A DNA stretch of 26,371 nucleotides, taken from positions 1 through 26,371 of the forward strand of contig JAHLWS010000076.1 of NCBI GenBank assembly GCA_019057795.1, written 5' to 3'. The notes under the pieces are model-generated. The model made no database searches. It saw nothing but the letters and a program-made list of their open reading frames with translations, and had not been told where the DNA came from. The stretch is from Promethearchaeota archaeon (lineage in GTDB: Archaea > Asgardarchaeota > Lokiarchaeia > Sigyniarchaeales > SOKP01). Of this stretch, positions 2,360 through 26,371 are shown in pieces; the first letter of the stretch is position 1, and each line of letters opens with the position of its first letter. Made by a program: the position numbers and the translations under genes.

Positions 2360-4003
2360 TCATTCCTTACTTTTTCTTAAATTATACAAATTTACTTCTC
2401 GTCTTGCGATATCCTCTAATGAATTCAAACCGTTATAGGTGGTATGACAAAACTGTATAATTTCTTCCCAATCGTATTTTTTCCATAACTTCCCCTCAAA
2501 TAATGAGAAAAAGCAATAAATGATAAATTTATTTCTTAGAGCTGAGAATTCTTCTGAGAATTGAATGCCGCGCCTGTATTTTGCGCATGTTAGGATTGTT
2601 TCGTATAAGTATGCGTCTATTTTTTCATCTTTAACCAATTCATTAATTTTTGAAGTGATATCAAATATGGAAGTATATTTGAAAAACTCATCAAAATATA
2701 CACATATTAAAAAGGCAAATTTGAATACCCCCTTGGTGAATTTGTTCATAGACGCTTCCACATTCTTTGGTCTAAAGCAAGTATCAAGGTGATAAAACGC
2801 ACGGCGCAGGAGATCCTCATAATCATAGGGAATGGAATCAAGTTCGGGGAGCTCATCAAATAAAAGTTTCCCATATAGGATTACTGAATTCTGTGGTATC
2901 ATAAAGTCCAATAAAGCCCACTTGTAATTTGCCCAAGATTCTTTTTCATAGACTTCTTTCTGTTTAAGCCCTTCTAACGAATTAAAGAACACATTTGCCG
3001 TATAACGACCTTTTTTATAGTCTAATCTTCTCACGTCCGTCCAATCCTGTAATTTGGGGATTTTATCAATGGATTTCACAATGCAGATAATGTCGATATC
3101 ATTTTTAATCCAATCATCAGGAAGTTTTCTATCAAAAAAGCTCCCTATTCCATAAATGCTGATAATATTTTCTGAGAATCTTTCTACAAGATCTTGAATT
3201 ATCGAGTAAGTTATCCCACATTTTTCCTTATGTTCGTGCCGTTCGCATTCGTATAATAGTTCCGAGAGTTTAACTTCTCTTTTTCCCTGCCAATACTCAA
3301 GTGCCCATTTTAAATCTTGTTTTGCTTTGTTAGAATCAAACTTATAGAGGAAAACGCTTATTTGATCAAACTGAAGCTCTAATTCTTGTTCTTGGATAAG
3401 AGAACTAAGGTCTATTCTCTGGAGAACTTCTCGAGGGATGTTTTTTACTTCATTGCTTTTTTTTGTCATATCCCTTGGGGCTATAATAATCCCATAGCAG
3501 AGTAAATCGGTGTTATACCCTAATTCTTTTAAGATTTGGCAATAGATCTGCGCTTGTACTTTTTGATTAGGAAATGTAGTGGAATACTTGCTAAATTTAT
3601 ACTCAAACAGAAAAATGGGTATTCCTCTTTTGAATACAATCACGTCAGGCTTTCCTACGATAATATCGTCTTGAGATTTCATGAGAAAAGGGGTTTCCAC
3701 AATTACCATTTCCTCTACTTTCGGAATTTTTTCTACCAGCTCTTTAAACGTTATGGCCTCCGCATCTTCAGCCATCCTCTCGTGCAGCTTTGTTCCTTCC
3801 TTTTGCGCTTCAGTCTTTATTTTCCCGAAAATATAATCTAATTCTAATTTCGCCTCAGAATAAAATTGAGACGCTATATCCGACACAATCAAGTATGGAC
3901 GATTGAATTTTAAGTTTGATTTTCCTTTTTTAACGCGCTCAATCAGTTCCTCTCGTAGTTTCACTTGATTCTCAAAAATAGCTTTCCAATTGTCTTGCGG
4001 CAT
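2360..4003 (-). CDS. Fusion of Cas4/Exo5-like PD-(D/E)XK nuclease, Pol-beta-fold nucleotidyltransferase and C-terminal helical (HEPN-like) domain
   Basis: N-half: VSDIASQFYSE, GTKLHE, GKPD, EYK, QAQIY. C-half: SIYGIGSFF...NDIDII (GS-x13-DxD), followed by an all-helical region. Confidence 0.75.
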   Translation of the reverse strand: MPQDNWKAIFENQVKLREELIERVKKGKSNLKFNRPYLIVSDIASQFYSEAKLELDYIFGKIKTEAQKEGTKLHERMAEDAEAITFKELVEKIPKVEEMVIVETPFLMKSQDDIIVGKPDVIVFKRGIPIFLFEYKFSKYSTTFPNQKVQAQIYCQILKELGYNTDLLCYGIIIAPRDMTKKSNEVKNIPREVLQRIDLSSLIQEQELELQFDQISVFLYKFDSNKAKQDLKWALEYWQGKREVKLSELLYECERHEHKEKCGITYSIIQDLVERFSENIISIYGIGSFFDRKLPDDWIKNDIDIICIVKSIDKIPKLQDWTDVRRLDYKKGRYTANVFFNSLEGLKQKEVYEKESWANYKWALLDFMIPQNSVILYGKLLFDELPELDSIPYDYEDLLRRAFYHLDTCFRPKNVEASMNKFTKGVFKFAFLICVYFDEFFKYTSIFDITSKINELVKDEKIDAYLYETILTCAKYRRGIQFSEEFSALRNKFIIYCFFSLFEGKLWKKYDWEEIIQFCHTTYNGLNSLEDIARREVNLYNLRKSKE

Positions 4004-4204: not shown

Positions 4205-4235
4205 TTGCAAATATTTGCAAATATTTTTAAATATT
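4205..4235. promoter_or_regulatory. Overlapping palindromes with 10-bp-phased repeats in the divergent promoter region
   Basis: Perfect palindromes TTGCAAATATTTGCAA (4205-4220) and AAATATTTGCAAATATTT (4209-4226). AAATATT recurs at 4209, 4219 and 4229 and overlaps TATA-like TTTTTAAA (4224-4231). Confidence 0.45.
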
Positions 4236-4280
4236 GTGTTTAAGACTAATAAAATGATAAAAGTTTTGTGAAATTGGAAC

Positions 4281-7200
4281 ATGGGAACTGATAAATCAGA
4301 TAAATCTAAGAAAAATAAGTTTGATAAACAAATTTTAACGAGGTTTGTCCAAACAGAATGTGAAAGGCAATTGTTTTTGGATTTAGCTCAAGAAAAGCCA
4401 GATTTGTGGATATCTCCTAATCGACCTACCGAGAAACCAAAAATACGCCGCCATGTTTCAAAATATCTAGAGCAAATGGGTCAGAAATATGAGCAATTAG
4501 TGTACGCTAGGTTAGTTTCTTTAAAACAAGTGAAATACAAAAAAGGGGAAAAGGGTAAAGTTGCAGACTCCTATTTATCACCAAATGCGTTTCTTGAGTT
4601 TTATAACGCTCTTGAACAAAAAAAGAAATCTAACCAACCTCTATTATTATTAGAATATCAGTACGAAAACCCTCGTTCTTTTTTTAAAGAAGTATTTAAT
4701 ATTTCTAGCAGGAAAGAGCCAATACCCGTTGAATATTCAAATCAACGCCCAGATATTTTAATTATTGAAAAATTAAATGACGCTTCTGATGAAGTAAGTG
4801 AATTATTACCCAATAATAAGGTACGAGAAGTTTCAAAAGAAGAACTTAAATCGCGGTATGCGATCTCTGTAATAGATATTAAAAATATTCGCGATATTAA
4901 TGTAGGAAAAAAGCAATTTACTGAGATTTTGTATTACATGCAAACTCTTACTTATTTTCTAAAAGAACACGGTCTTAATAATAAGTTCTTTGTTCAAGTA
5001 AATAAAAACGGAATTTTTCCACAATATAGTGAAGACGAGCTTAATAAAATTAAAAGCTTTGATGATTTTTTTGAATTAGCGATATTCCTCAAGTGGGACG
5101 AATCAAATCAGATTTTTAAAACCCTCGTAAACAAAATACAGCAGCTTTGGAAGAAATGCCCTTGTTCAATTGATTCGATTCCGGTAAATATTCAGGTAAA
5201 TTGTGGATATTGTTATTATATTGAAGATTGTAAAAAAACTTTAGGCATGGATGGAGTAAAACCTCGTAAAGAGTGGTCGTTAAAGCTTATTCCGTATACT
5301 TCTATGTCTATTGCCCAACAATTGCTTGATCGTGGATTCAAGACAATTGGAGACATGGTTGATAACTTGAAGAATGTTAAAGTAGGCAACACGCCCGAAT
5401 CTCTTTACCCCGAATTACCTCTCTTACAATTAAAAGCACAATCTATTTCAGAGAATAAAGTAATTAAACCACGTCCAGGACAAATACACGCGTATTCTAT
5501 TCCTAAATATTCTGCAATTGCTATTAATTTCTCAGTGGAAAGCGATCCGGCTAATCAGAGAGTATTTGCCGCTGGATTGTATTTATACATGTCAGTCTCG
5601 CCTAAAGCTCCTTATAGTTTAGTTTACGAAAATTGGTGGAGGATTTGGAAAGAAGGTTATGAGAAATCTAAACCCCCAAAGGAAATTCAGAAGGAATTGA
5701 ACGAGAATTTAACTCGAGAAATTCCTTTAGAGCATGTCGAAAAATTTTTATATCTTTTAGGAAGGCTTAAAGGGTTTCTTATTTTCTTGAAAGGTGAAAA
5801 AAAGAAGGACGGTTCAATAAGACAACGATCAACTGTAATGTATCAGTTTGCTATGATTAACGAAGGTAGCGAAGACCAAACTGAAGCAAATTTCGTTAGA
5901 AAAGTTATAATTAAACTAAATTATCTTTTAAAACTATGCAACATAATTGAAAATTATTTGGTAACGGACTCTGAAAAAGCTGGAAGGTATTACGGTCCAA
6001 CCACTAGTCTATTTTACTGGTCTCGCAGACAATTGAATAATTTTCAAGAAATGCTTGAAAGAAACCTTGATTTTATTATCAAGGATCGAAAAGCGGCTTC
6101 TGCTTTTGAATCCATTATGACTCTTTTTTCGCCTTCTGAATCTGAAGTAGCACATCCTTACCAACATAAAAAGATGTTTAACATCCAAGATTTTGCCGAA
6201 ACGATTTTTGGTTTTCCGACTATTATTACTTATACATGGCACGAGATCGCCAAACAGAGCTTTGGAACGCAAGTAAGTTTGAGATATTGGATCCCTCATT
6301 TTAATTATATGGATTTTAATAATTGGTACGAATTTCTTGTAGAGAAGGATAATATAAAAAAACAAGAGTTAATACGCCAAATGATGATTAAAGTTCGCAC
6401 GATAAATTGGCTTAGAATGAAATTTCAAGTTGAATTCAGCCAAATAATCTCAAAACATTCGAGAGTTATTAATAAATCAGTTTTTAAAAGCGTTTTTCTC
6501 AATTCAGAATTACATCCAATTTCTCACGTGTGGTATTTATTCTCAAAGTTTACAGGAGCTTTTGACGAATTAGAAACTGAGTATCTTAGGACAACATACC
6601 CTGAATTTAGTATTGGTAAATTAGCTGCCGCTCAAGTTGATAGCTTACAAATTAACGATGGTAACGGAAAAAATGTATTTTGTGCATTTAACTTAATCGG
6701 GCTTTCAAGTAATATGAAATTAAGAGCAGGACAGAGAGTTTATTTAATTCCTAATCAAATACGCGATATGCCCTTAAGTAGAATTGTAGAGATGTATAAA
6801 GTAACCATAGCAGAAATGGTATGGTATTCTAAAATAAAGGGGTACGTCGTAACTACTGAGGAAACAGGCAGTAATTTCTATAAAGATTATCAGGGCAAAG
6901 AAAAAGCCCATACATGGTATCTATATCACACGACAATTGATGCTTGGTCAAAAAAGCTTTATGGGCGGGATGGGCTGCTACAAAGGCATCAATTAGGGAC
7001 TTCGTGGTTAGGTGCCCGGTTAGCCTTTCTGTGGGGGATCCGTTCAACCCCAAAATTGTTCTGGCCACATTCTTGGGAATTTTCTGCCCCCGCTGTATAT
7101 CTTTTTTCTCCAAAATTAGTATTAAATTTAACTAATGAAAAAAAGGTCGAAAAAACAGAACAATTAATCACCCCAATTAGTCCAACTCCTGATTTCTCTC

Positions 7201-8780
7201 AGAAAGCTGCGATTAAACTCGCTTTAAATAACGTTATATCTGGAATTCGAGGGCCGCCTGGAACAGGAAAGTCGCAGACAATCGCCGCTTTTATAGATGA
7301 ATATTACGAGCGTTGTAAAAAACAAGGTCAAAAATCGGTAAAAATTTTAGTTACTTGCTTTTCTTACGCCGCTCTTCGCGTAATAATAGACAAAATTAGG
7401 AATAGTAAAGACAGTTCGAACAAATTAGTTAAATCCGCAAAGCTCCAGATGATCTTTTTAAGGTCTCAATATCAAAAACCCATAGAAAAAAAAGTTGGGT
7501 GTCGAAATGTTGACGATTTAGTTAGGAGGGGTAAAACTTGGAAATTAAACGGTCAAAGCAGATCAGTCACAGCAACTAATATGTTCGAAGAATCACTTGA
7601 AGATAGTTTTATTTTGTTTGCAAACGCTCATCAATTGTTCTATCTACCTGATAGAGTTGACGATAATTTTGCGTTTGACTTGATTGTGGTAGACGAGGCG
7701 AGTCAATTACCAATAGACAACTTTATGTCAAGTTTACAGTTTGTACACGGGCACGATTTTAAAGTAAAGATGCCTGACGATGCGGATATGCCTGGTACGC
7801 AGATTTTAGATAGTAAGCTTATCAAAGATTTAAGTCTTGAGGATGGAGTTAAATATAAGCCCCTTACTAAGGTTGTTATCGTAGGAGATTACAATCAATT
7901 ACCTCCAGTTCAACCAGTTAAGCCTCCAAAAAAATTGGAACGAGTTTTAGACAGTTTATTTAGCTATTACGTTAGAAGACATGGCATTCCTAACGTGCAA
8001 TTAAAAGTAAATTATCGCTCTAACGAGGAGATTATGAATTTTACTTCTATTCTGGGTATTTACGAAGAATTAATTGCCGCGCCAAGTAATGCGTCTTTTA
8101 CTTTAGAAGGAGATATTAATAGAATTAAAGTGAAGTGGGTACAAGAAGTCTTAGATCCAAAAAAAGTTATAGGGACAATTATCCACAAAAGAAAATACGA
8201 AGTAGGCGTGAGCAGTTTAGAGGCGGAATTAGCAGTACAAATAGTAATCAGTTATTATTACATGTGTAATATTAAAAACGAAAAAGAAGAAATAGAATTT
8301 TGGTTGCAAAAATTGGGTGTCGTTGCGCCACATAATGCCCAAGGCCGTTTAATAATACGCCGAATTTTTGACGAAATGACAAAACCAAAGGATCGAATCT
8401 CACACCTTACAAATCCGCTTCTGATGAAATTTATTAGCAATACGGTATACAGCGTCGAAAAGTTCCAAGGTTCCGACAGAGATCTAATTATTTCGTCAAT
8501 AGGGTTATCTGATAAGGATCAATTAAACGCAGAAAGCGAATTTATATACAATTTAAACCGGTTTAACGTTCTCACTTCTAGGGCAAAAGCTAAAATTATT
8601 CTCATTGCCAGTAAACAATTTTTCGAATTTATTCCTATGGATCGAAAAATAATCGAACAATCGGCTCATATCAGAAAATTTGCTATGAATTTTTGTAATA
8701 TAAAACAATCTCTTAAAGTGTTAAATGAAAAACATGAATATGAAAAATTATTATTTAGGTATAGAATTATTAAGAAATAA
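4281..8780 (+). CDS. Fe-S PD-(D/E)XK (RecB/Cas4-type) nuclease fused to DNA2/NAM7/Upf1-type SF1B helicase, with a degenerate TM0106-like RNase H-fold middle region
   Basis: Nuclease motifs RPDILII and IDIK; cysteines C27 and C308-x2-C311-x5-C317. Helicase motifs GPPGTGKS (aa ~991), VDEASQ, VGDYNQLPPV, NYRS, SVEKFQGSDRD, NRFNVLTSRAK. Confidence 0.9.
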   Translation: MGTDKSDKSKKNKFDKQILTRFVQTECERQLFLDLAQEKPDLWISPNRPTEKPKIRRHVSKYLEQMGQKYEQLVYARLVSLKQVKYKKGEKGKVADSYLSPNAFLEFYNALEQKKKSNQPLLLLEYQYENPRSFFKEVFNISSRKEPIPVEYSNQRPDILIIEKLNDASDEVSELLPNNKVREVSKEELKSRYAISVIDIKNIRDINVGKKQFTEILYYMQTLTYFLKEHGLNNKFFVQVNKNGIFPQYSEDELNKIKSFDDFFELAIFLKWDESNQIFKTLVNKIQQLWKKCPCSIDSIPVNIQVNCGYCYYIEDCKKTLGMDGVKPRKEWSLKLIPYTSMSIAQQLLDRGFKTIGDMVDNLKNVKVGNTPESLYPELPLLQLKAQSISENKVIKPRPGQIHAYSIPKYSAIAINFSVESDPANQRVFAAGLYLYMSVSPKAPYSLVYENWWRIWKEGYEKSKPPKEIQKELNENLTREIPLEHVEKFLYLLGRLKGFLIFLKGEKKKDGSIRQRSTVMYQFAMINEGSEDQTEANFVRKVIIKLNYLLKLCNIIENYLVTDSEKAGRYYGPTTSLFYWSRRQLNNFQEMLERNLDFIIKDRKAASAFESIMTLFSPSESEVAHPYQHKKMFNIQDFAETIFGFPTIITYTWHEIAKQSFGTQVSLRYWIPHFNYMDFNNWYEFLVEKDNIKKQELIRQMMIKVRTINWLRMKFQVEFSQIISKHSRVINKSVFKSVFLNSELHPISHVWYLFSKFTGAFDELETEYLRTTYPEFSIGKLAAAQVDSLQINDGNGKNVFCAFNLIGLSSNMKLRAGQRVYLIPNQIRDMPLSRIVEMYKVTIAEMVWYSKIKGYVVTTEETGSNFYKDYQGKEKAHTWYLYHTTIDAWSKKLYGRDGLLQRHQLGTSWLGARLAFLWGIRSTPKLFWPHSWEFSAPAVYLFSPKLVLNLTNEKKVEKTEQLITPISPTPDFSQKAAIKLALNNVISGIRGPPGTGKSQTIAAFIDEYYERCKKQGQKSVKILVTCFSYAALRVIIDKIRNSKDSSNKLVKSAKLQMIFLRSQYQKPIEKKVGCRNVDDLVRRGKTWKLNGQSRSVTATNMFEESLEDSFILFANAHQLFYLPDRVDDNFAFDLIVVDEASQLPIDNFMSSLQFVHGHDFKVKMPDDADMPGTQILDSKLIKDLSLEDGVKYKPLTKVVIVGDYNQLPPVQPVKPPKKLERVLDSLFSYYVRRHGIPNVQLKVNYRSNEEIMNFTSILGIYEELIAAPSNASFTLEGDINRIKVKWVQEVLDPKKVIGTIIHKRKYEVGVSSLEAELAVQIVISYYYMCNIKNEKEEIEFWLQKLGVVAPHNAQGRLIIRRIFDEMTKPKDRISHLTNPLLMKFISNTVYSVEKFQGSDRDLIISSIGLSDKDQLNAESEFIYNLNRFNVLTSRAKAKIILIASKQFFEFIPMDRKIIEQSAHIRKFAMNFCNIKQSLKVLNEKHEYEKLLFRYRIIKK

Positions 8781-8801
8781 AGATAATTAAAGAAAATAAT
8801 A

Positions 8802-10385
8802 GTGAAAGAGATGAAAACAGTAAAGTTTATTCACATAGCGGACCTTCATCTTGGAAAAAGGCAATATAACCTTTCCGAGAGGTATAACGATTATTTTCGC
8901 GCGTTTAAATGGATGTTAAACTTTGCTTTTAACGAGGAGGTAGATTTTTTGTTAATTGCAGGAGATATCTTTGATCATAAAAATATAGGCCCCTCTGTGT
9001 TAAGCGAACTATTTCACATTATTCGAAATTTTAAAGACAAATGTTTCAAGAAATTAAACCGAAATATACCTTTAATATGCATTGAAGGTAATCACGATAA
9101 TCCAGTTTACTCAGAACATTCTTGGATGAGTTTTTTAGCCGATTTAGATTTGGTTGTTTTATTAGCAGGGGAATACAATAAAGAAACTAAAACTTTTAGA
9201 TTTGATCAGTATTCTGATAAAACTCATCGAGGCGGAATGATTGAAATAAACGATATGTGTATATATGGATTACCTTATTTTGGAAGTTTTACGTCCCAGT
9301 TATTTCCAGCAATTAAAAAGGCTATTCCTAAAAGCGAATCTAAATTCAACTTATTAATGATGCATTTTGGAATAGAAGGTCAAGATAAATCAAAGACGGG
9401 CGTTAAAATGACACAATCTCTTAATTTACTGCACGAAAATATCGATTATTTAGCGTTAGGTCATTTTCATAAGCAATACACCCTACCATCTGCAAATCCA
9501 TGGATATTTAACCCTGGAAGTTTAGAAACAAACGATTTATCTGAGCTTTCGTTTACACGAGGAGCTTTTATTGCCGAAATTTCAGGTAAAGAATATTACC
9601 AGCAACAAATAACTTCAATTGAATGCGATAACGGAGATATTGACCCTAGATTTATTCCTAATAGAAAGTTTATTTCTGTATCCTCAATAGATCTTGAAAA
9701 AACAGATAATTTTGATAAATCCATTGATTTAATTTTAACTAGACTTCAGAAGGGGGGTGTACCTTTACACGACACAAAACCCGTTGTGGAGAAAAGCGAT
9801 TTAAATTGTCCAATTGTTTTTTTTAGTATTAAAGGCGTAATAGGATATTCACGATTAGAAATTGATCTAAACAAACTTCGAAACGCAATTAAGAAAAAAT
9901 TCGCTATTTTAGACGTAAGAATATTTACAAAAGAACTATTTTCTAAAATCGATCAGTTACAAGTAGGATTAGACGAAATGACTATAGATGAGATAGAAAA
10001 AGAAGTTATATTCTCGATTATTGAAGAACACAGTCAATTTAATCCTATTAAGAGCGAAATTGTAGCTCTAATGGATGATATTAAAGCTCAACTTACTCAA
10101 AGGAAGCCGAACTATTTAGAATTAAAAGAGCAAATGACCGAATGGTGCATAGCAAATATTGATGGATTTAAAAGACCAAGCAAAATTGATGGCTTTATCG
10201 TAGAAGCAGAAGAGGAAAAAGAGGAAGCTCTGCAACGACTAATTAAAGAAAAACAAAAGGAAGACGAATCCTTGAAAGGGGAAAAAAGCGATGCGGAAAG
10301 TGAATTTAATCCGTTTGACGATTTTAATTTAGATTTAGACGATTACATTGACGATGGAAAAGAAGAGGAGGATAAAACCAAATGA
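8802..10385 (+). CDS. mre11: Mre11/SbcD DNA repair nuclease (calcineurin-like phosphoesterase) with acidic C-terminal tail
   Basis: All five motifs present: HIADLHLG, AGDIFD, EGNHD, MHFG, GHFH, plus PGS. The start could be the ATG at 8811. Confidence 0.93.
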   Translation: MKEMKTVKFIHIADLHLGKRQYNLSERYNDYFRAFKWMLNFAFNEEVDFLLIAGDIFDHKNIGPSVLSELFHIIRNFKDKCFKKLNRNIPLICIEGNHDNPVYSEHSWMSFLADLDLVVLLAGEYNKETKTFRFDQYSDKTHRGGMIEINDMCIYGLPYFGSFTSQLFPAIKKAIPKSESKFNLLMMHFGIEGQDKSKTGVKMTQSLNLLHENIDYLALGHFHKQYTLPSANPWIFNPGSLETNDLSELSFTRGAFIAEISGKEYYQQQITSIECDNGDIDPRFIPNRKFISVSSIDLEKTDNFDKSIDLILTRLQKGGVPLHDTKPVVEKSDLNCPIVFFSIKGVIGYSRLEIDLNKLRNAIKKKFAILDVRIFTKELFSKIDQLQVGLDEMTIDEIEKEVIFSIIEEHSQFNPIKSEIVALMDDIKAQLTQRKPNYLELKEQMTEWCIANIDGFKRPSKIDGFIVEAEEEKEEALQRLIKEKQKEDESLKGEKSDAESEFNPFDDFNLDLDDYIDDGKEEEDKTK

Positions 10386-13090
10386 TAATCACTAAGGTTG
10401 AATTAGAAAACATAACAACTCATAAGAAAACAGTTATAGAGTTTCAAGAAGGGCTTAACATATTAATTGGACAAAATGGTTCAGGAAAATCAACAGTATT
10501 AAATATGATTGGATATAATCTTTTCGATTTTTTGCCAGGGGTCCAAAAGGATTATTTACGGAACCAATCTCGCCCTCAACTTAAATTTGGAACTATAAGC
10601 GTATGGATTGTAGGTTTAAACGACGATCAGTTTATTGTAAAAAGAACTTTAGGAAAACAAAGTAATGATATAATAGTTTCAGATGCTCTCACAGGGTTTA
10701 CAATCTCAGGAGTAAACAATAAAACTAGTTTACAGCAGTGGTTAAAGAGACAAATTTCCTTAAAAGAAGGATTTGATTTAGCTCATGTGTTTAGAACTTC
10801 AATTGGAGTTCCACAAGGAACTTTTACCTCGCCATTTTTACAGACTCCGCAGCATCGAAAAACTTTTTTTGATCCTATTTTGCAAGTTGATATTTACAGA
10901 AAGATATGGAAAAACTTTTTAGAAGTTATTAAATTGATTTCCGAAGATATTCACATTCGCGAACTTAAAGCGAGCGAACTGAAAGGTATTCTTTCACAAT
11001 CGGACGATTTGAAAAAAGAAAATGAAGTAATCAAAAAAGAGATAGATACTTCAAAGAAAAAGGAAAACCAATTACAAATAGATTTAGCGACGACTACCAA
11101 AGAGTATAACGATCTTAAAAAACTAAAAGAACAACTTGAAAAATCAATTAATGCTTACGAAAAGCTTGAATTGAAACGAGAAAGCTTGAATCAAGCACAT
11201 AACCAAATTGATGACGATATTAAAGAAGCAGAAAAAGCTCGGGATATATGCATTAATACTAAAGATAGTTATCTTAAATATGATAATTTAATTCCCGAAG
11301 AAGCTCGCCTTCAAAAAATTAATCAAAATTTACAAGAATATAAAGCCGAAAAAATTGGTTTAGAACATCAATTAACTCTAATTAAAAGCTCCAATAAACA
11401 CATTGCTGAGCAAATTAAAAGCATTGAAGATTCACAAAAAGAATTTAAGATACTTAAGAAGGATTTTCAAAAATCGCAAGATTTTCAAATAGATATAGAA
11501 GACCTACAAAAAAAGATAACGACTATTGGGTCTCAAGAAGAGTTATTAGATGTAAAAGAAGACAATTATATAAAACTTAGTACAAGAATCGATGAAAAAG
11601 AAGGAAAAGTAGAAGAATTACCCGACTTAGAAAAAAAAGCTACGATGCTTGAAAGTCTACGGGACAAACTTCTAAAAATCGAACAACTAAACATAAAGCT
11701 TGAAACTGAAATCACGCAATTTGAGAAAAATAAAGAAGATTCAAAAGGAGGTAATTGTCCTATCTTAAAGACTAAATGTAAGAATTTTGACGGAGCAACG
11801 TTGGAGCAGCATTTTCAAAAATTGATCGTCGAAAACCAAAAAGCCTTGAAACCTATTTTAATCGAAAAAGTTAAGTTTAGCAGAGAAATTGAAAATTTAA
11901 AAAAACTTCAACCTGATTTAGAAAGTTTAAGGGAAATTGAAGTTGAAATTAAAACTTTAAAAGAACAGAGATTGCAAATAGGAAAAGATATTCAAGAATT
12001 ACAGGATATTGTCAAGGATAAACAAACAGAAGAGAAAAGACTAGCCGAATTAAAATCCAAAAAGTTAGCGTTAGAAAAAAAAGTGTCAAATTTCACGATT
12101 TTAAAACATAATATTGATGTGAATTTACCTAAGCTTTACACCCAATTAAAGGAGACGCAACAAGATTTACCTCCAATCGTCAAAAAGTTGAAGCCTGTTA
12201 TAGATAAAATGAAGGGTCTAGAAGATATACCAAATAAGATAAACTCAATTCAAGAAGAGATGAATAAAACTCGAAAAAGCCATTCAGAATATCAAGAGTC
12301 TATAAAAATAGCGGAGAAACTTCCTTCATTAACTAAAAGAATGAATCAAAACAAAAAAGAACAAATACAAATTGAAAAAAAAATAGAAAATGAAGTTTTG
12401 AATAAAAAGAAATTAGAGGACCAATTCGATAACGAGAAATTTCTAAATACTGAAAAGAAAAAAAACGAATTAAACGATTCAATTAAAGTAATAGAAGGCA
12501 CAATTAAAACTCATATGGAAAGAATTAGTGAAATTGATGCGAAATTCAAAATCTTAGACGTTAAAGAGCGGGAATTAAAGAATATAGAAGAAGATATAAC
12601 AAATTTAAGCGATATGAAACAATTTGCTGAGACTATGAGAATTTGGTATAACGAAATGGGACCTAAAATTACCGAAGCTCTACTATCGAAAATCAACGGT
12701 TTGGCCTCTGAAATTTATCGCGATTTAATGGACGCTGAAAACACTCAGCTATTATGGGAAAAAGATTACAATGTAAAAATTTTAACTTCTAATAGCGAAA
12801 AAAGTTTCCACCAATTATCTGGAGGAGAACAAATGGCTGCAGCATTAGCAGTTCGCCTTGCAATTCTTAAAGTTTTAACAAACGTAGATTTTGCTTTCTT
12901 TGACGAACCGACAATTAATTTAGACAAAGAGAGAAGGGTAAACTTAGCTAAATGTATTCAAAATATTAAAGGATTTAGGCAATTATTTGTAATTTCTCAC
13001 GATGACACTTTCGAAGAAAATGCTGAAAATATTATAAAATTTACAAAAGACGAGCGTGAGATAACAACTGTCCAATACTTCAGCAAATAA
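10382..13090 (+). CDS. rad50: Rad50/SbcC SMC-like ATPase
   Basis: Walker A GQNGSGKS, Q-loop PQG, long coiled coils, central CPILKTKC, signature LSGGE, Walker B FFDEPT, H-loop ISHD. ATGA overlap with the mre11 stop. Confidence 0.95.
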   Translation: MIITKVELENITTHKKTVIEFQEGLNILIGQNGSGKSTVLNMIGYNLFDFLPGVQKDYLRNQSRPQLKFGTISVWIVGLNDDQFIVKRTLGKQSNDIIVSDALTGFTISGVNNKTSLQQWLKRQISLKEGFDLAHVFRTSIGVPQGTFTSPFLQTPQHRKTFFDPILQVDIYRKIWKNFLEVIKLISEDIHIRELKASELKGILSQSDDLKKENEVIKKEIDTSKKKENQLQIDLATTTKEYNDLKKLKEQLEKSINAYEKLELKRESLNQAHNQIDDDIKEAEKARDICINTKDSYLKYDNLIPEEARLQKINQNLQEYKAEKIGLEHQLTLIKSSNKHIAEQIKSIEDSQKEFKILKKDFQKSQDFQIDIEDLQKKITTIGSQEELLDVKEDNYIKLSTRIDEKEGKVEELPDLEKKATMLESLRDKLLKIEQLNIKLETEITQFEKNKEDSKGGNCPILKTKCKNFDGATLEQHFQKLIVENQKALKPILIEKVKFSREIENLKKLQPDLESLREIEVEIKTLKEQRLQIGKDIQELQDIVKDKQTEEKRLAELKSKKLALEKKVSNFTILKHNIDVNLPKLYTQLKETQQDLPPIVKKLKPVIDKMKGLEDIPNKINSIQEEMNKTRKSHSEYQESIKIAEKLPSLTKRMNQNKKEQIQIEKKIENEVLNKKKLEDQFDNEKFLNTEKKKNELNDSIKVIEGTIKTHMERISEIDAKFKILDVKERELKNIEEDITNLSDMKQFAETMRIWYNEMGPKITEALLSKINGLASEIYRDLMDAENTQLLWEKDYNVKILTSNSEKSFHQLSGGEQMAAALAVRLAILKVLTNVDFAFFDEPTINLDKERRVNLAKCIQNIKGFRQLFVISHDDTFEENAENIIKFTKDEREITTVQYFSK

Positions 13091-13148
13091 TTAAAAAATT
13101 TTTAACTTTTTTTGAAAATCTATTAAACCTTTCATTAGCGCATTATTT
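13091..13148. terminator. T-rich junction between convergent rad50 and RNase HI genes
   Basis: TTTTTAACTTTTTTT directly after the rad50 stop; oligo-T termination is typical of archaea. Confidence 0.4.
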
Positions 13149-13589
13149 TTAGATTTTAAATCCTTCAGCATCCAATCGTTCATTACACAATTTATCGCAT
13201 TTAGTAATATAAGGATTATTCCTTCCCACATGAAAAAATTCCACCTTTTCGTATTTCTCGCACAACTTATAGACCTCGCCACACATTTTCGATAGGTGCG
13301 GATAGTTGATTTTCCATTTCTTATTGATTTGTTGTATTGCTAAGTTGCTATCAGAATACACTTGAATGTTCCCTCGTGAGAATCGTTCAGCAACTTTTAA
13401 TGCGTTAATTATAGCTATATACTCGGCAGTATTGTTTGTCGCAGTTCCAATAAAATCACATTCATTATGGATAATGTTATCATTATGAACGAATAGAAAT
13501 GCGCTAGCAGCGGGACCGGGATTACCGCGTGAAGCACCATCCACATAAATTTTAAGTTTGTCTCCTTTTTTAACTGGACTTCTATTCAT
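13149..13589 (-). CDS. rnhA: Ribonuclease HI family protein
   Basis: IYVDGASRGNPGPA, TNNTAEY, YSDS and final Asp (CDKLCN) give the complete DEDD set. Confidence 0.92.
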   Translation of the reverse strand: MNRSPVKKGDKLKIYVDGASRGNPGPAASAFLFVHNDNIIHNECDFIGTATNNTAEYIAIINALKVAERFSRGNIQVYSDSNLAIQQINKKWKINYPHLSKMCGEVYKLCEKYEKVEFFHVGRNNPYITKCDKLCNERLDAEGFKI

Positions 13590-18141: not shown

Positions 18142-18229
18142 ATAGGAGAAAATTAAATTTTTCTTTATATATTCGACTAGATAAGCGAATATCTGATGAA
18201 ATAATGGTCTATATTCTTGTACTGTAAGG

Positions 18230-18277
18230 GAGACTCATTGAGTTTTTGTTTAATGAATGCGTGCCTTTCTGGTCGCG
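18230..18277 (+). repeat. 48-bp direct repeat, copy A (duplicate of the chrB-like gene 3' region)
   Basis: 47/48 identical to 19559-19606. Confidence 0.9.
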
Positions 18278-18284
18278 GTTTTTA

Positions 18285-19529: not shown

Positions 19530-20087
19530 CTAGGAAAGTGGCCTTTTCGTCGGTAATAGAGACTCGTTGAGTTTTTGTTTAATGAATGCGTGCCTTTCTG
19601 GTCGCGTTTTGATTTTCTCTAATTCATCTTTATATTTTTCACGGATTATTTGTTGTTTAAAGTACGTGTATACGGCGTCGTAAACTGGAAATTCCTTTTC
19701 CAATGCTTCGTGATCTGAATTTACTAAAAATGGGGTTCCAACAGCTACAAGTTCTAAAGCCCACGCGAGAGGTTCCTCGTTTATTCCTCCCGTATCTGCG
19801 GCTCTAACAAGTTTTCTAACTCCTTGCAACGCCTCGTCGCTTTCGAGCTCATATTTTTCCACGATGGCATCAAATGTGCAATGCTTCTCACCGTTGCATA
19901 CATGGTGATCAAGTTCTACTCCCGTACCAGCAGTATCAAATGGAATTGCTCCAGTGTTCGCTACGAAATCGGATATTTCATCTTTTGGGAGGAAAACGAA
20001 TTGAGCGCGTTTATCAACGAATCTTTTGATTAACCAGGGGCTAGCTACCCTATCAATATGTACATAATCTCGGGTTACCCATATCAT
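19530..20087 (-). CDS. Chromate-resistance ChrB C-terminal-domain protein (ChrF-like)
   Basis: WVTR..HIDRVASPWLIKRFVD..A.F, GAIPFD, CTFD, VRAAD and YDA motifs. Confidence 0.85.
   Translation of the reverse strand: MIWVTRDYVHIDRVASPWLIKRFVDKRAQFVFLPKDEISDFVANTGAIPFDTAGTGVELDHHVCNGEKHCTFDAIVEKYELESDEALQGVRKLVRAADTGGINEEPLAWALELVAVGTPFLVNSDHEALEKEFPVYDAVYTYFKQQIIREKYKDELEKIKTRPERHAFIKQKLNESLLPTKRPLS
19559..19606 (+). repeat. 48-bp direct repeat, copy B (inside the chrB-like gene)
   Basis: 47/48 identical to 18230-18277. Confidence 0.9.
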
Positions 20088-25181: not shown

Positions 25182-26371
25182 TATGAACGCTTAAGAAAAC
25201 ACCTCCATTTATGGGGGTGATGAATTAAGCACGATCTTTTTTAAAAAAATCAAAAAACCACTATACTTTAATCCATTTAAAGAATGATTCTTTCTTTTTA
25301 GGTATAAATGATTCGAGCTCTCAATGTTCGGATATATCCGAACAAGACGCAACGTACCCAGATTCGCAAAACAATAGGGTGTAATCGCTTCATTTACAAT
25401 CAGATGCTCGTTGAGAGGGAGGAAATCTATGAACGGTTTAAGAACGATAAGGATGCGCTTAAGGAGCACACCTATAAAACAGAAAAGCAATATAAGGTCG
25501 AGTTTCCATTTTTAAAAGAAGCTGATTCCATTGCCTTACAAGCCTCAAGAGAGCATTTGTTTAAGGCATATCAAAACTTTTTTAACGGTTTAAAAAAAGG
25601 TCGTAAGGTCGGCTTTCCAAAATTCAAGTCAAAGAAAGGAAAGGAAACCTATACGACCAAACAAACGAATGGAAACATCAAGATTGATTTTGAAAGAAAA
25701 AAATTAAAGTTACCAAAACTCGGATGGCTTAGATTTAACGATAAGAGGGTGTTTTCCGAATCGATCAAACATGCCACCGTTAAAAAAACGAAATCAAACA
25801 AGTATTTCGTTTCTCTGACCTTAGAAGCGCAGGAGGATGTAAAGGAACTACAAGAGGTACATGAGAAGGATGTTACTGCGTTTGATATGTCAGCAAATAA
25901 TTTTTTGGTGAATGATCTTGTTAAGATGGAGAATCCACGATTCTACCGTTTAGAGCAGAAAAAGACCAAGAAGCTAAGCAAGGAACTTTCGCGAAAGAAA
26001 AAAGGTTCTAAGAATCGAGAAAAAGCGCGTTTAAAATTAGCACGACACTACGATACAATATACAACAGAAAGAAGGATTGGACACACAAGCTCACCAGAA
26101 AATTAGCTGACACGTTTGATGCTATTATTTTAGAAAACCTAAACGTGAAAGGAATGCAGAGGTTCAATTCTGGTTTGTCAAAAACGGTTTCTTTAGATTT
26201 CTCGTGGTATCAATTCACGACCTATTTAAAATATAAGATGGAATGGTTAGGAAAGCATTTCATCCTCGTAGATAGATTTTTTGCTTCCAGTAAACTTTGT
26301 TCATGCTGTGGTTGGAAAAACAACAACCTTACCTTAAAAGAAAGAGTGTGGACGTGTCTGGATTGCGGAAC
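25182..26371 (+). mobile_element. IS200/IS605-family tnpB-only (IS1341-type) element, copy 2 (left part)
   Basis: Left-end hairpin AAAA-cacctcca-ttta-tgggggtg (25196-25219) inside gcttaa...ttaagc, with TTTAT at 25177-25181. Only about 90 bp separate the hairpin from tnpB, leaving no room for tnpA. Confidence 0.85.
25308..26371 (+). CDS. tnpB: TnpB RNA-guided endonuclease (3' end runs off the window; absent from the ORF track)
   Basis: MIRALNVRIYPNKTQ...IGCNRFIYN, GFPKFKSK, LKLPKLG, RuvC-I AFDMS, NPRFY, RKKKGSKN, RuvC-II LENL, and zinc finger CSCC...CLDC; frame open to the end. Confidence 0.95.
   Translation, partial: MIRALNVRIYPNKTQRTQIRKTIGCNRFIYNQMLVEREEIYERFKNDKDALKEHTYKTEKQYKVEFPFLKEADSIALQASREHLFKAYQNFFNGLKKGRKVGFPKFKSKKGKETYTTKQTNGNIKIDFERKKLKLPKLGWLRFNDKRVFSESIKHATVKKTKSNKYFVSLTLEAQEDVKELQEVHEKDVTAFDMSANNFLVNDLVKMENPRFYRLEQKKTKKLSKELSRKKKGSKNREKARLKLARHYDTIYNRKKDWTHKLTRKLADTFDAIILENLNVKGMQRFNSGLSKTVSLDFSWYQFTTYLKYKMEWLGKHFILVDRFFASSKLCSCCGWKNNNLTLKERVWTCLDCG

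Follow-up and report, generated by a model that had tools for sequence, protein, structure and literature searches.

The window analyzed here, an entire 26.4-kb contig (C76) of a Promethearchaeota archaeon, carries an operon of three genes that encode a large nuclease-helicase (NH), Mre11, and Rad50. With moderate confidence, we read this trio as an alternative module for DNA double-strand-break end resection in Lokiarchaeia. Whether canonical Mre11-Rad50 (MR) of Lokiarchaeia gained its partner for long-range resection by recruitment of a restriction-type nuclease-helicase, in a cassette that displaces the herA-nurA cassette in situ, is to us an evenly balanced question. If it did, Asgard archaea would have evolved the eukaryotic solution of MR plus an iron-sulfur (Fe-S) nuclease and a superfamily 1B (SF1B) motor independently of Dna2. 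A 2026 review of NurA treats Asgard resection as uncharacterized and raises the question of NurA's replacement in eukaryotes, where HerA-NurA gave way to Exo1 and Dna2 (PMC13748450). The trio shows that the HerA-NurA partner of Asgard MR can be exchanged at one site for a single-chain nuclease-helicase of Dna2 plan and separate origin. It would thus be a natural test of whether a HerA-NurA swap works, and its three genes make it suited to biochemistry. New in this work are a methylase-linked bacterial sister family of NH, hook and tail motifs in Rad50 and Mre11, a tabulation of three cassettes, and the presence of both MR systems in one genome. The unnamed and widespread bacterial family and the C-x6-C variant of the Rad50 hook are further pointers beyond the trio itself.

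Exchange with herA-linked modules and inheritance of the trio

The strongest argument in this analysis comes from the chromosomal position of the trio. In four genomes (G083, G174, G202, and G207) it sits between alba and an aminotransferase gene, and in G057, in G077, and on contig C47 of the window's own genome the same position is held by herA-(nurA)-mre11-rad50. The flanks are orthologous between the trio loci and the herA-linked loci, with genes for proteins of 320, 192, and 219 amino acids (aa) and Alba on one side and genes for a 180-aa protein, the aminotransferase, and a 122-aa protein on the other. Because of this orthology, the gene orders indicate that trio and herA-linked cassettes replace one another in situ in the core genome, which points to equivalent function.

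The module on C47 (C47:2415-8832; L051) has the order herA-nurA-mre11-rad50, encodes a 697-aa Rad50 with a CPTC hook, and belongs to a type that 92 of 201 genomes in the phylum possess. A second type, herA-mre11-rad50 with a 707-aa Rad50, occurs in relatives (G057 type). Rad50 was surveyed in a 46-genome sample of the family, which includes 14 trio genomes, with two short-Rad50 queries and a Rad50 model. No other MR module was found in nine of the 14 trio genomes, six of which are 94-100% complete; two others carry the C47 type and three the G057 type. Most of the trio-less genomes in the sample carry a herA-linked module.

Neither herA nor nurA is present in the window operon or at any of the 19 trio loci. 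A reading made from the sequence alone (the sequence-only reading) had described the operon as lacking HerA and NurA and had asked for a search of the genome for a separate canonical locus. The description holds for the operon and fails for the genome, which has the C47 module and, on contig C82 (C82:91218-92099; L005 9114-10394), a gene for a lone 426-aa NurA. The lone NurA belongs to a conserved run of genes for an rRNA adenine dimethylase, a methyltransferase, NurA, and an Rce1-like protease; in four trio genomes this NurA keeps its synteny at 65-69% identity, and no herA lies closer than about 7 kb. The genome also encodes a third Mre11 paralogue (C11:12501-13577; L006 8463-9656), a protein of 397 aa that is 35% identical to the window Mre11, lacks a Rad50 partner, and adjoins a PHP-domain metallohydrolase and a 419-aa protein without a family match.

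The order NH-mre11-rad50 is kept in 19 Lokiarchaeial loci from at least eight genera and two families, including Candidatus Harpocratesius repetitus and a 3.7-Mb Promethearchaeota scaffold. In a FastTree phylogeny of NH, which was only midpoint-rooted and carries long-branch warnings, the trio-linked proteins form one clade (support 97) and the stand-alone Asgard copies branch outside it. The NH, Mre11, and Rad50 trees have 11 to 12 of 12 splits in common, and their patristic distances correlate with r values of 0.92-0.97. Rad50 of the trio type was found only in NH-bearing genomes (12 of 201). Given the single NH clade, the congruent trees, and the restriction of this Rad50 to genomes with NH, the phylogenies indicate that the linkage of NH to MR arose once within Lokiarchaeia and that the cassette is inherited as a unit. 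Conservation of NH beside mre11 and rad50, on which the sequence-only reading had staked its proposal, is thereby established by 19 loci and three agreeing gene trees. The trio also matched no described system in the searches made: no PADLOC or NCBIfam model covers it, and a literature search for it found no description. Among cultured archaea, Lokiarchaeum ossiferum has an annotated relative of NH.

Organization of the operon and its products

The three genes (Table 1) lie on the same strand and are tightly coupled. The TAA stop codon of NH (8778-8780) is followed by a 21-bp gap, mre11 starts with GTG (the next ATG is at 8811), and mre11 and rad50 overlap by the ATGA at 10382-10385. Both genes that bound the operon lie on the minus strand, a divergent one at 2360-4003 and a convergent one, for RNase H, at 13149-13589. 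The coupling and the bounding genes are as the sequence-only reading had given them, and its guess of an Asgard source is confirmed by proteins 82-92% identical to NH, whose source names read Promethearchaeota or Lokiarchaeota. The region upstream of NH, a candidate promoter, contains an exact tandem repeat of TTGCAAATAT at 4205-4224, just 5' of a TATA-like element, TTTTTAAATATT. The tandem repeat is not kept upstream of 17 other trio loci, and a search for a common upstream motif at 18 loci found none. An oligo-T stretch directly 3' of the rad50 stop codon is likely a transcription stop.

Table 1. Positions of the operon, its genes, and the domains and motifs that they encode
Feature	Position	Strand	Basis
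Upstream region, candidate promoter	4205..4280	+	AT-rich; TATA-like TTTTTAAATATT; tandem TTGCAAATAT x2; read directly
NH gene, 1499 aa	4281..8780	+	Open reading frame (ORF); orthologues 30-92% identical in Asgard genomes; same architecture in bacterial sister clade
NH residues ~12-330, Cas4/PDDEXK_1-type PD-(D/E)XK nuclease with four cysteines (C27/C308/C311/C317)	4314..5270	+	Motifs; protein-atlas clusters
NH residues ~335-400, helix-hairpin-helix-like linker	5284..5480	+	Conserved block LIPYTS.SIAQQL..GF.TIGD
NH residues ~410-730, DnaQ/DEDD 3'-5' exonuclease fold	5508..6470	+	AlphaFold2 models and VIA-align
NH residues ~741-909, Sen1/Setx/Upf1-type beta-barrel before the motor	6501..7007	+	VIA-align; Foldseek
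NH residues ~965-1465, SF1B helicase core of Upf1/Dna2/IGHMBP2 type	7173..8675	+	Pfam AAA_11 and AAA_12
mre11, 527 aa, acidic C-terminal tail	8802..10385	+	Metallophos, E 3.6e-16; Mre11_Pyroc, 106 bits
Mre11 tail motif D-x-D-x-x-I-D-D (DLDDYIDD), candidate docking motif	10314..10385	+	15 trio loci aligned
rad50, 902 aa, full-length archaeal type, long coiled coil	10382..13090	+	NF003034
Variant Rad50 hook C-P-x5-C (CPILKTKC)	11756..11779	+	C459, P460, and C466 invariant in 15 trio loci
T-rich stretch after rad50, likely transcription stop	13091..13130	+	Read directly

The sequence-only reading had recognized in NH an N-terminal PD-(D/E)XK nuclease with a C...CxxC-x5-C pattern and a complete SF1B helicase. 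Both are borne out, the nuclease by conserved motifs and the helicase by its Pfam matches and by an invariant Walker A motif, DEASQ motif, arginine fingers, and Q/R motifs; PDB sequence matches of the helicase are to DNA2, Upf1, Aquarius, and Sen1. That reading had overlooked two further domains in the approximately 630 residues between nuclease and helicase. The nuclease pattern (C27, E125, R-P-D158, D199-I-K201, E215-x3-Y219, and C308-x2-C311-x5-C317) is kept in 16 Asgard and 8 distant sequences, and C27, D158, D199, K201, Y219, C308, and C311 are invariant even when bacterial relatives at 21-26% identity are included. The nearest protein-atlas clusters of the nuclease carry the labels PDDEXK_1 or Cas_Cas4 (score, 0.92-0.93). 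At an E value cutoff of 0.01, the first 960 residues of NH, nuclease included, have no Pfam match, and a profile of the nuclease found nothing among PDB sequences; the fold is assigned from the motifs and the protein-atlas features. The pattern C27/C308/C311/C317 predicts a four-cysteine Fe-S cluster that spans the nuclease. In the linker, a bacterial relative (P0199) shows a weak match to TIGR03491, the model of the TM0106 family, confined to that region (E 9.3e-7; 28 bits against a cutoff of 97), and NH itself does not match this model.

The first of the two overlooked domains has the DnaQ/DEDD 3'-5' exonuclease fold, both in an AlphaFold2 model of NH residues 1-960 (predicted local distance difference test score, 76) and in a separate model of residues 396-782. 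The top VIA-align matches are exonuclease domains of family B polymerases, with Z scores of 13.7 for the whole model and 13.0 for the domain alone (168-181 aligned residues; root-mean-square deviation, 3.0-3.8), and DEDD exonuclease domains fill all 50 of the top 50 rows for the domain model. Foldseek found no significant match in the PDB for either model, and the assignment of the exonuclease fold comes from VIA-align only. In the sequence alignment, D422, E535, and E684 are the only candidate catalytic residues of this domain that are invariant throughout the family, and bacterial Y-x-W-D and E-R-x-H-E correspond to F-Y-W-S and N-N-W-Y-E in NH. Because W-S and W-Y-E in the Asgard branch replace W-D and H-E of the bacterial proteins, the domain is probably not catalytic in that branch. 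The second overlooked domain, the beta-barrel, resembles those of Setx and Sen1 (VIA-align Z, 9.3-9.5) and of Upf1 (Foldseek probability, 0.95-0.99 over approximately 150 columns).

A large bacterial family with the same order of nuclease, exonuclease fold, and SF1B helicase can be aligned to NH from end to end, at 21-26% identity; the bacterial proteins have 1400-1540 aa (loci L060-L118), and WP_404392278.1 of Pseudoalteromonas phenolica is an example. Long branches separate the Asgard and bacterial clades in the FastTree phylogeny, where one myxobacterial sequence is basal to the Asgard clade. At 41 of 47 loci, the gene for the bacterial relative adjoins an N6/N4 DNA methylase gene, and some copies are near-identical between phyla, for example, those of Syntrophaceae and Phycisphaerae. 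None of the NCBIfam and PADLOC models covers the bacterial family. Because of the methylase pairing and the near-identical copies across phyla, the family looks like an undescribed restriction-modification-like system.

The second and third genes encode Mre11 and Rad50, as had been proposed: among solved structures, both products are closest to the Pyrococcus furiosus proteins (Mre11, 1ii7, E 5.8e-24; Rad50, 3qku, E 4.9e-24). Mre11 retains the full set of calcineurin-like phosphoesterase motifs, with H16, D55, N97, H98, H188, H221, and H223 invariant in 15 trio loci; the NCBIfam equivalog score stays below its cutoff (106 against 600 bits). The Mre11 tail is variable except for D511, D513, I516, D517, and D518, which are invariant in the same 15 loci and form the candidate docking motif. 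The NF003034 model matches Rad50 with 209 bits, below its cutoff of 700, over model positions 1-867 of 878. The split ABC ATPase head of Rad50 has its Walker A and B, Q-loop, signature, D-loop, and H-loop motifs invariant in the 15 loci. The window Rad50 lacks the canonical C-x-x-C zinc hook and has the C-P-x5-C variant instead, as do 16 of 17 trio Rad50s; CPVC is found solely in the Harpocratesius copy (L116), and the hooks of the herA-linked short Rad50s are CPTC and CSLC.

The window begins and ends with 95%-identical direct repeats (1-300 and 26019-26318) that lie within two transposase-like ORFs, one incomplete at the 5' end (1-567) and the other at the 3' end (25308-26369). Because the contig ends have this structure, the 25-kb segment with the trio appears to be bracketed by two direct copies of an insertion sequence (IS); a circle assembled from strain variants is a less likely explanation. 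None of the genes that flank the trio in the window is common to the other trio loci. The divergent gene encodes a 547-aa protein without a Pfam match, in which a Cas4-like N terminus (PADLOC Cas4, E 2.5e-7) is fused to further domains; a paralogue of its C-terminal half, 43% identical, is encoded on contig C69, and the gene is not conserved beside other trio loci. A 58-nt direct repeat (18224-18281 and 19553-19610; 93% identity) encloses 1.3 kb of the window.

At the other loci, no gene beyond the trio was found to be conserved throughout, and the neighbors are housekeeping and repair genes, such as those for ribosomal proteins S15 and S3Ae in G186. In G206 (L053 1571-4422), two small ORFs (199 and 235 aa, no family match) and a gene for an ATP-dependent DNA ligase come after rad50 in the same orientation; G213 (L054 11617-12663) has the same two small ORFs, and the examined stretch ends before any ligase. 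Three further loci (L052 1850-5950, L055 1760-5840, and L056 817-4968) have another SMC/Rad50-like gene (~850 aa) downstream of rad50 in the same orientation, and after it a gene for a protein of about 175 aa and one for a MoxR-type AAA ATPase.

Candidate functions of the trio

In the model that we favor, MR would recognize and tether DNA ends and start their processing, and NH would then take over long-range resection. The SF1B motor of NH would translocate 5' to 3' along the 5'-terminated strand, and its Cas4/AddB-type Fe-S nuclease would cut this strand, leaving a 3' tail for RadA. Because most of its candidate catalytic residues are lost in the Asgard branch, the central exonuclease-fold domain more likely holds or guides DNA than cuts it, and the acidic motif at the C terminus of Mre11 may serve as a docking site. 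NH itself would derive from the family that pairs with DNA methylases in bacteria. We infer every activity, strand polarity, protein-protein contact, and division of labor in this model; what we observed are the operon, the domains and motifs, the co-inheritance, the slot replacement, and the genomes, many in number, in which the trio has the only Rad50 found. A canonical MR pair with intact motifs, the slot replacement, these sole-Rad50 genomes, the neighboring genes, and the lack of methylases and of viral copies together make resection moderately probable.

Several observations weigh against resection as the role of the trio. In the window's own genome, the herA-nurA module sits in the native slot, and the trio is a second MR system that lies between IS copies. 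As the C47 module occupies the native slot, the window trio is either an extra copy, probably acquired, or a copy from a second strain; the latter origin is conceivable because the contamination of the assembly is 7.5%. By GC content, contigs C76 and C47 cannot be told apart. All trio genomes tested retain the lone NurA, so that the independence of the trio from NurA is open to doubt. The trio is patchy: within the genus 4 of 16 other genomes have it, and within the family 11 of 40. Its tree splits genera g1 and g5. Finally, slot swapping is also typical of defense hotspots, and the methylase-linked, horizontally mobile bacterial relatives suggest a restriction-like origin of NH.

The same observations bear on the possibility that the trio acts against plasmids and viruses, with MR sensing free or unusual ends on invading DNA and NH degrading that DNA processively, in the way that RecBCD destroys linear DNA of phages. 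The sequence-only reading had offered end resection or defense as alternatives; the in-situ replacement of herA-linked MR modules strengthens the first and the second has lost ground, and we now consider defense unlikely, though deserving of attention. The methylase-linked bacterial relatives speak for it, as does one stand-alone Asgard NH copy that adjoins a methylase and a type III restriction subunit, yet no methylase or other self-marking gene occurs in any trio locus: tblastn with eight methylase queries, run on the window, on 18 trio loci, and on 6 loci of stand-alone Asgard copies, found none. The patchy distribution, the departure of the module tree from the genus labels, and the swapping of different modules at one slot would also suit a defense system, but the modules replaced are herA-(nurA)-mre11-rad50, the slot from alba to the aminotransferase gene belongs to the core genome, and the sole Rad50 found in nine genomes is that of the trio. 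In the window, the trio lies between direct IS copies and near the duplicated 58-bp repeat unit and the Cas4-like fusion gene, whereas its neighbors elsewhere include ribosomal protein and DNA ligase genes, and a search of viral contigs found no relative. Rad50 does score against the LmuB and mad3 models of defense systems; these PADLOC matches are limited to generic ATPase and helicase cores.

Rather improbable, in our view, is a role on hairpins, on stalled or reversed forks, or on flaps, in the manner of SbcCD with a helicase or of replicative Dna2, or in preparing ends for ligation. Mre11-Rad50/SbcCD and Dna2 act on hairpins and forks, and the lone NurA elsewhere in the genome could still carry out resection. 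The two small ORFs that follow rad50 in G206 and G213, with the ATP-dependent DNA ligase gene after them in G206, would fit a role of this kind, but such a neighborhood exists in only 2 of 19 trio loci. That the trio takes the place of whole herA-linked MR modules at one slot fits an equivalent task better than a different one.

The comparison of NH with Dna2 bears on its origin. The sequence-only reading had called NH Dna2-like. The likeness holds for the layout, in which an Fe-S nuclease precedes an SF1B helicase, and does not extend to kinship. At an E value cutoff of 0.01, the Pfam Dna2 family (PF08696) matches neither NH in hmmscan nor anything in a six-frame translation of the whole genome. 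Of 121 other genomes in the phylum, 15 have ORFs that the model finds, mostly of 984-1072 aa (one of 761 and one of 1211 aa). ORFs of 984-1072 aa with matches above its cutoff belong to other Asgard families, including f5 (9/9) and f14 (3/3); the 1211-aa ORF is in G089, which itself bears the trio. Three PF08696 ORFs compared with NH align in the helicase core alone, at 19-22% identity (E 1e-7 to 3e-10). Where Dna2 joins nuclease and helicase by only a barrel and stalk, NH has its nuclease and barrel set apart by the linker and the DEDD-fold domain, together about 400 residues. The best PDB match of the helicase is to mouse DNA2, but it covers only residues 1389-1449 (E 1.5e-6). By these comparisons, made without a tree that includes eukaryotic Dna2, NH is not an orthologue of Dna2 and resembles it in layout only; that NH is an archaeal ancestor or orthologue of eukaryotic Dna2, and the operon a forerunner of MRN-Dna2, is very improbable, as the PF08696 result, the core-only alignment, the extra domain, and the full-length alignment with bacterial relatives contradict it.

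Comparison with known systems

Among defense systems, Lamassu LmuB, MADS mad3, and PARIS AriA resemble the trio in placing a Rad50-like ATPase beside a nuclease. Against PADLOC-DB 2.0, Rad50 gave partial matches to LmuB and mad3 (residues 1-433 and 652-895), NH matched MkoA, DpdJ, and PDC-S37 in the helicase core only, Mre11 had no match, and no one system was matched full-length by the components. The matches to SMC/Rad50-type systems are to the generic ATPase head, whereas the trio Rad50 is full-length, is closest to that of P. furiosus, and has a bona fide Mre11 as its partner. AddAB, RecBCD, and AdnAB are helicase-nuclease machines for end resection, and AddB even has an Fe-S "staple" nuclease; however, their motors are of the SF1A UvrD type, their RecB nucleases are C-terminal, and they work without Mre11-Rad50, whereas NH has an SF1B motor and an N-terminal nuclease.

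The N-terminal half of NH looks similar in layout to the TM0106 family, in which a helix-hairpin-helix lies between a Cas4-like nuclease and an RNase H-like domain. NH differs in that a barrel and a complete SF1B helicase follow and in not matching the model; a literature search for TM0106 found no paper. The bacterial methylase-linked nuclease-helicases have the domain order of NH and share with it full-length homology and the invariant nuclease and helicase residues. Unlike NH, these proteins keep the candidate exonuclease residues and have a methylase, not Mre11-Rad50, as partner.

Eukaryotic MRN/MRX-Dna2 and the Dna2-type proteins of other Asgard archaea share with the trio an Fe-S nuclease N-terminal to an Upf1-like SF1B helicase, the barrel between them, and the pairing with MR. 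Compared with Dna2, NH adds the helix-hairpin-helix-like linker and the DEDD-fold domain, and it shares an operon with MR. The archaeal herA-nurA-mre11-rad50 operon, known from Sulfolobus and Pyrococcus, likewise encodes an archaeal-type MR together with a motor and a nuclease, and it occupies the same slot in Lokiarchaeia. Its motor and nuclease are a hexameric HerA ring and a NurA dimer, whereas the partner of MR in the trio is one polypeptide that combines an SF1B motor with a Cas4-type nuclease, and the trio Rad50 is long (~900 aa) with a C-x6-C hook, in contrast to the Rad50s of about 700 aa with a C-x-x-C hook in the local herA-linked modules.

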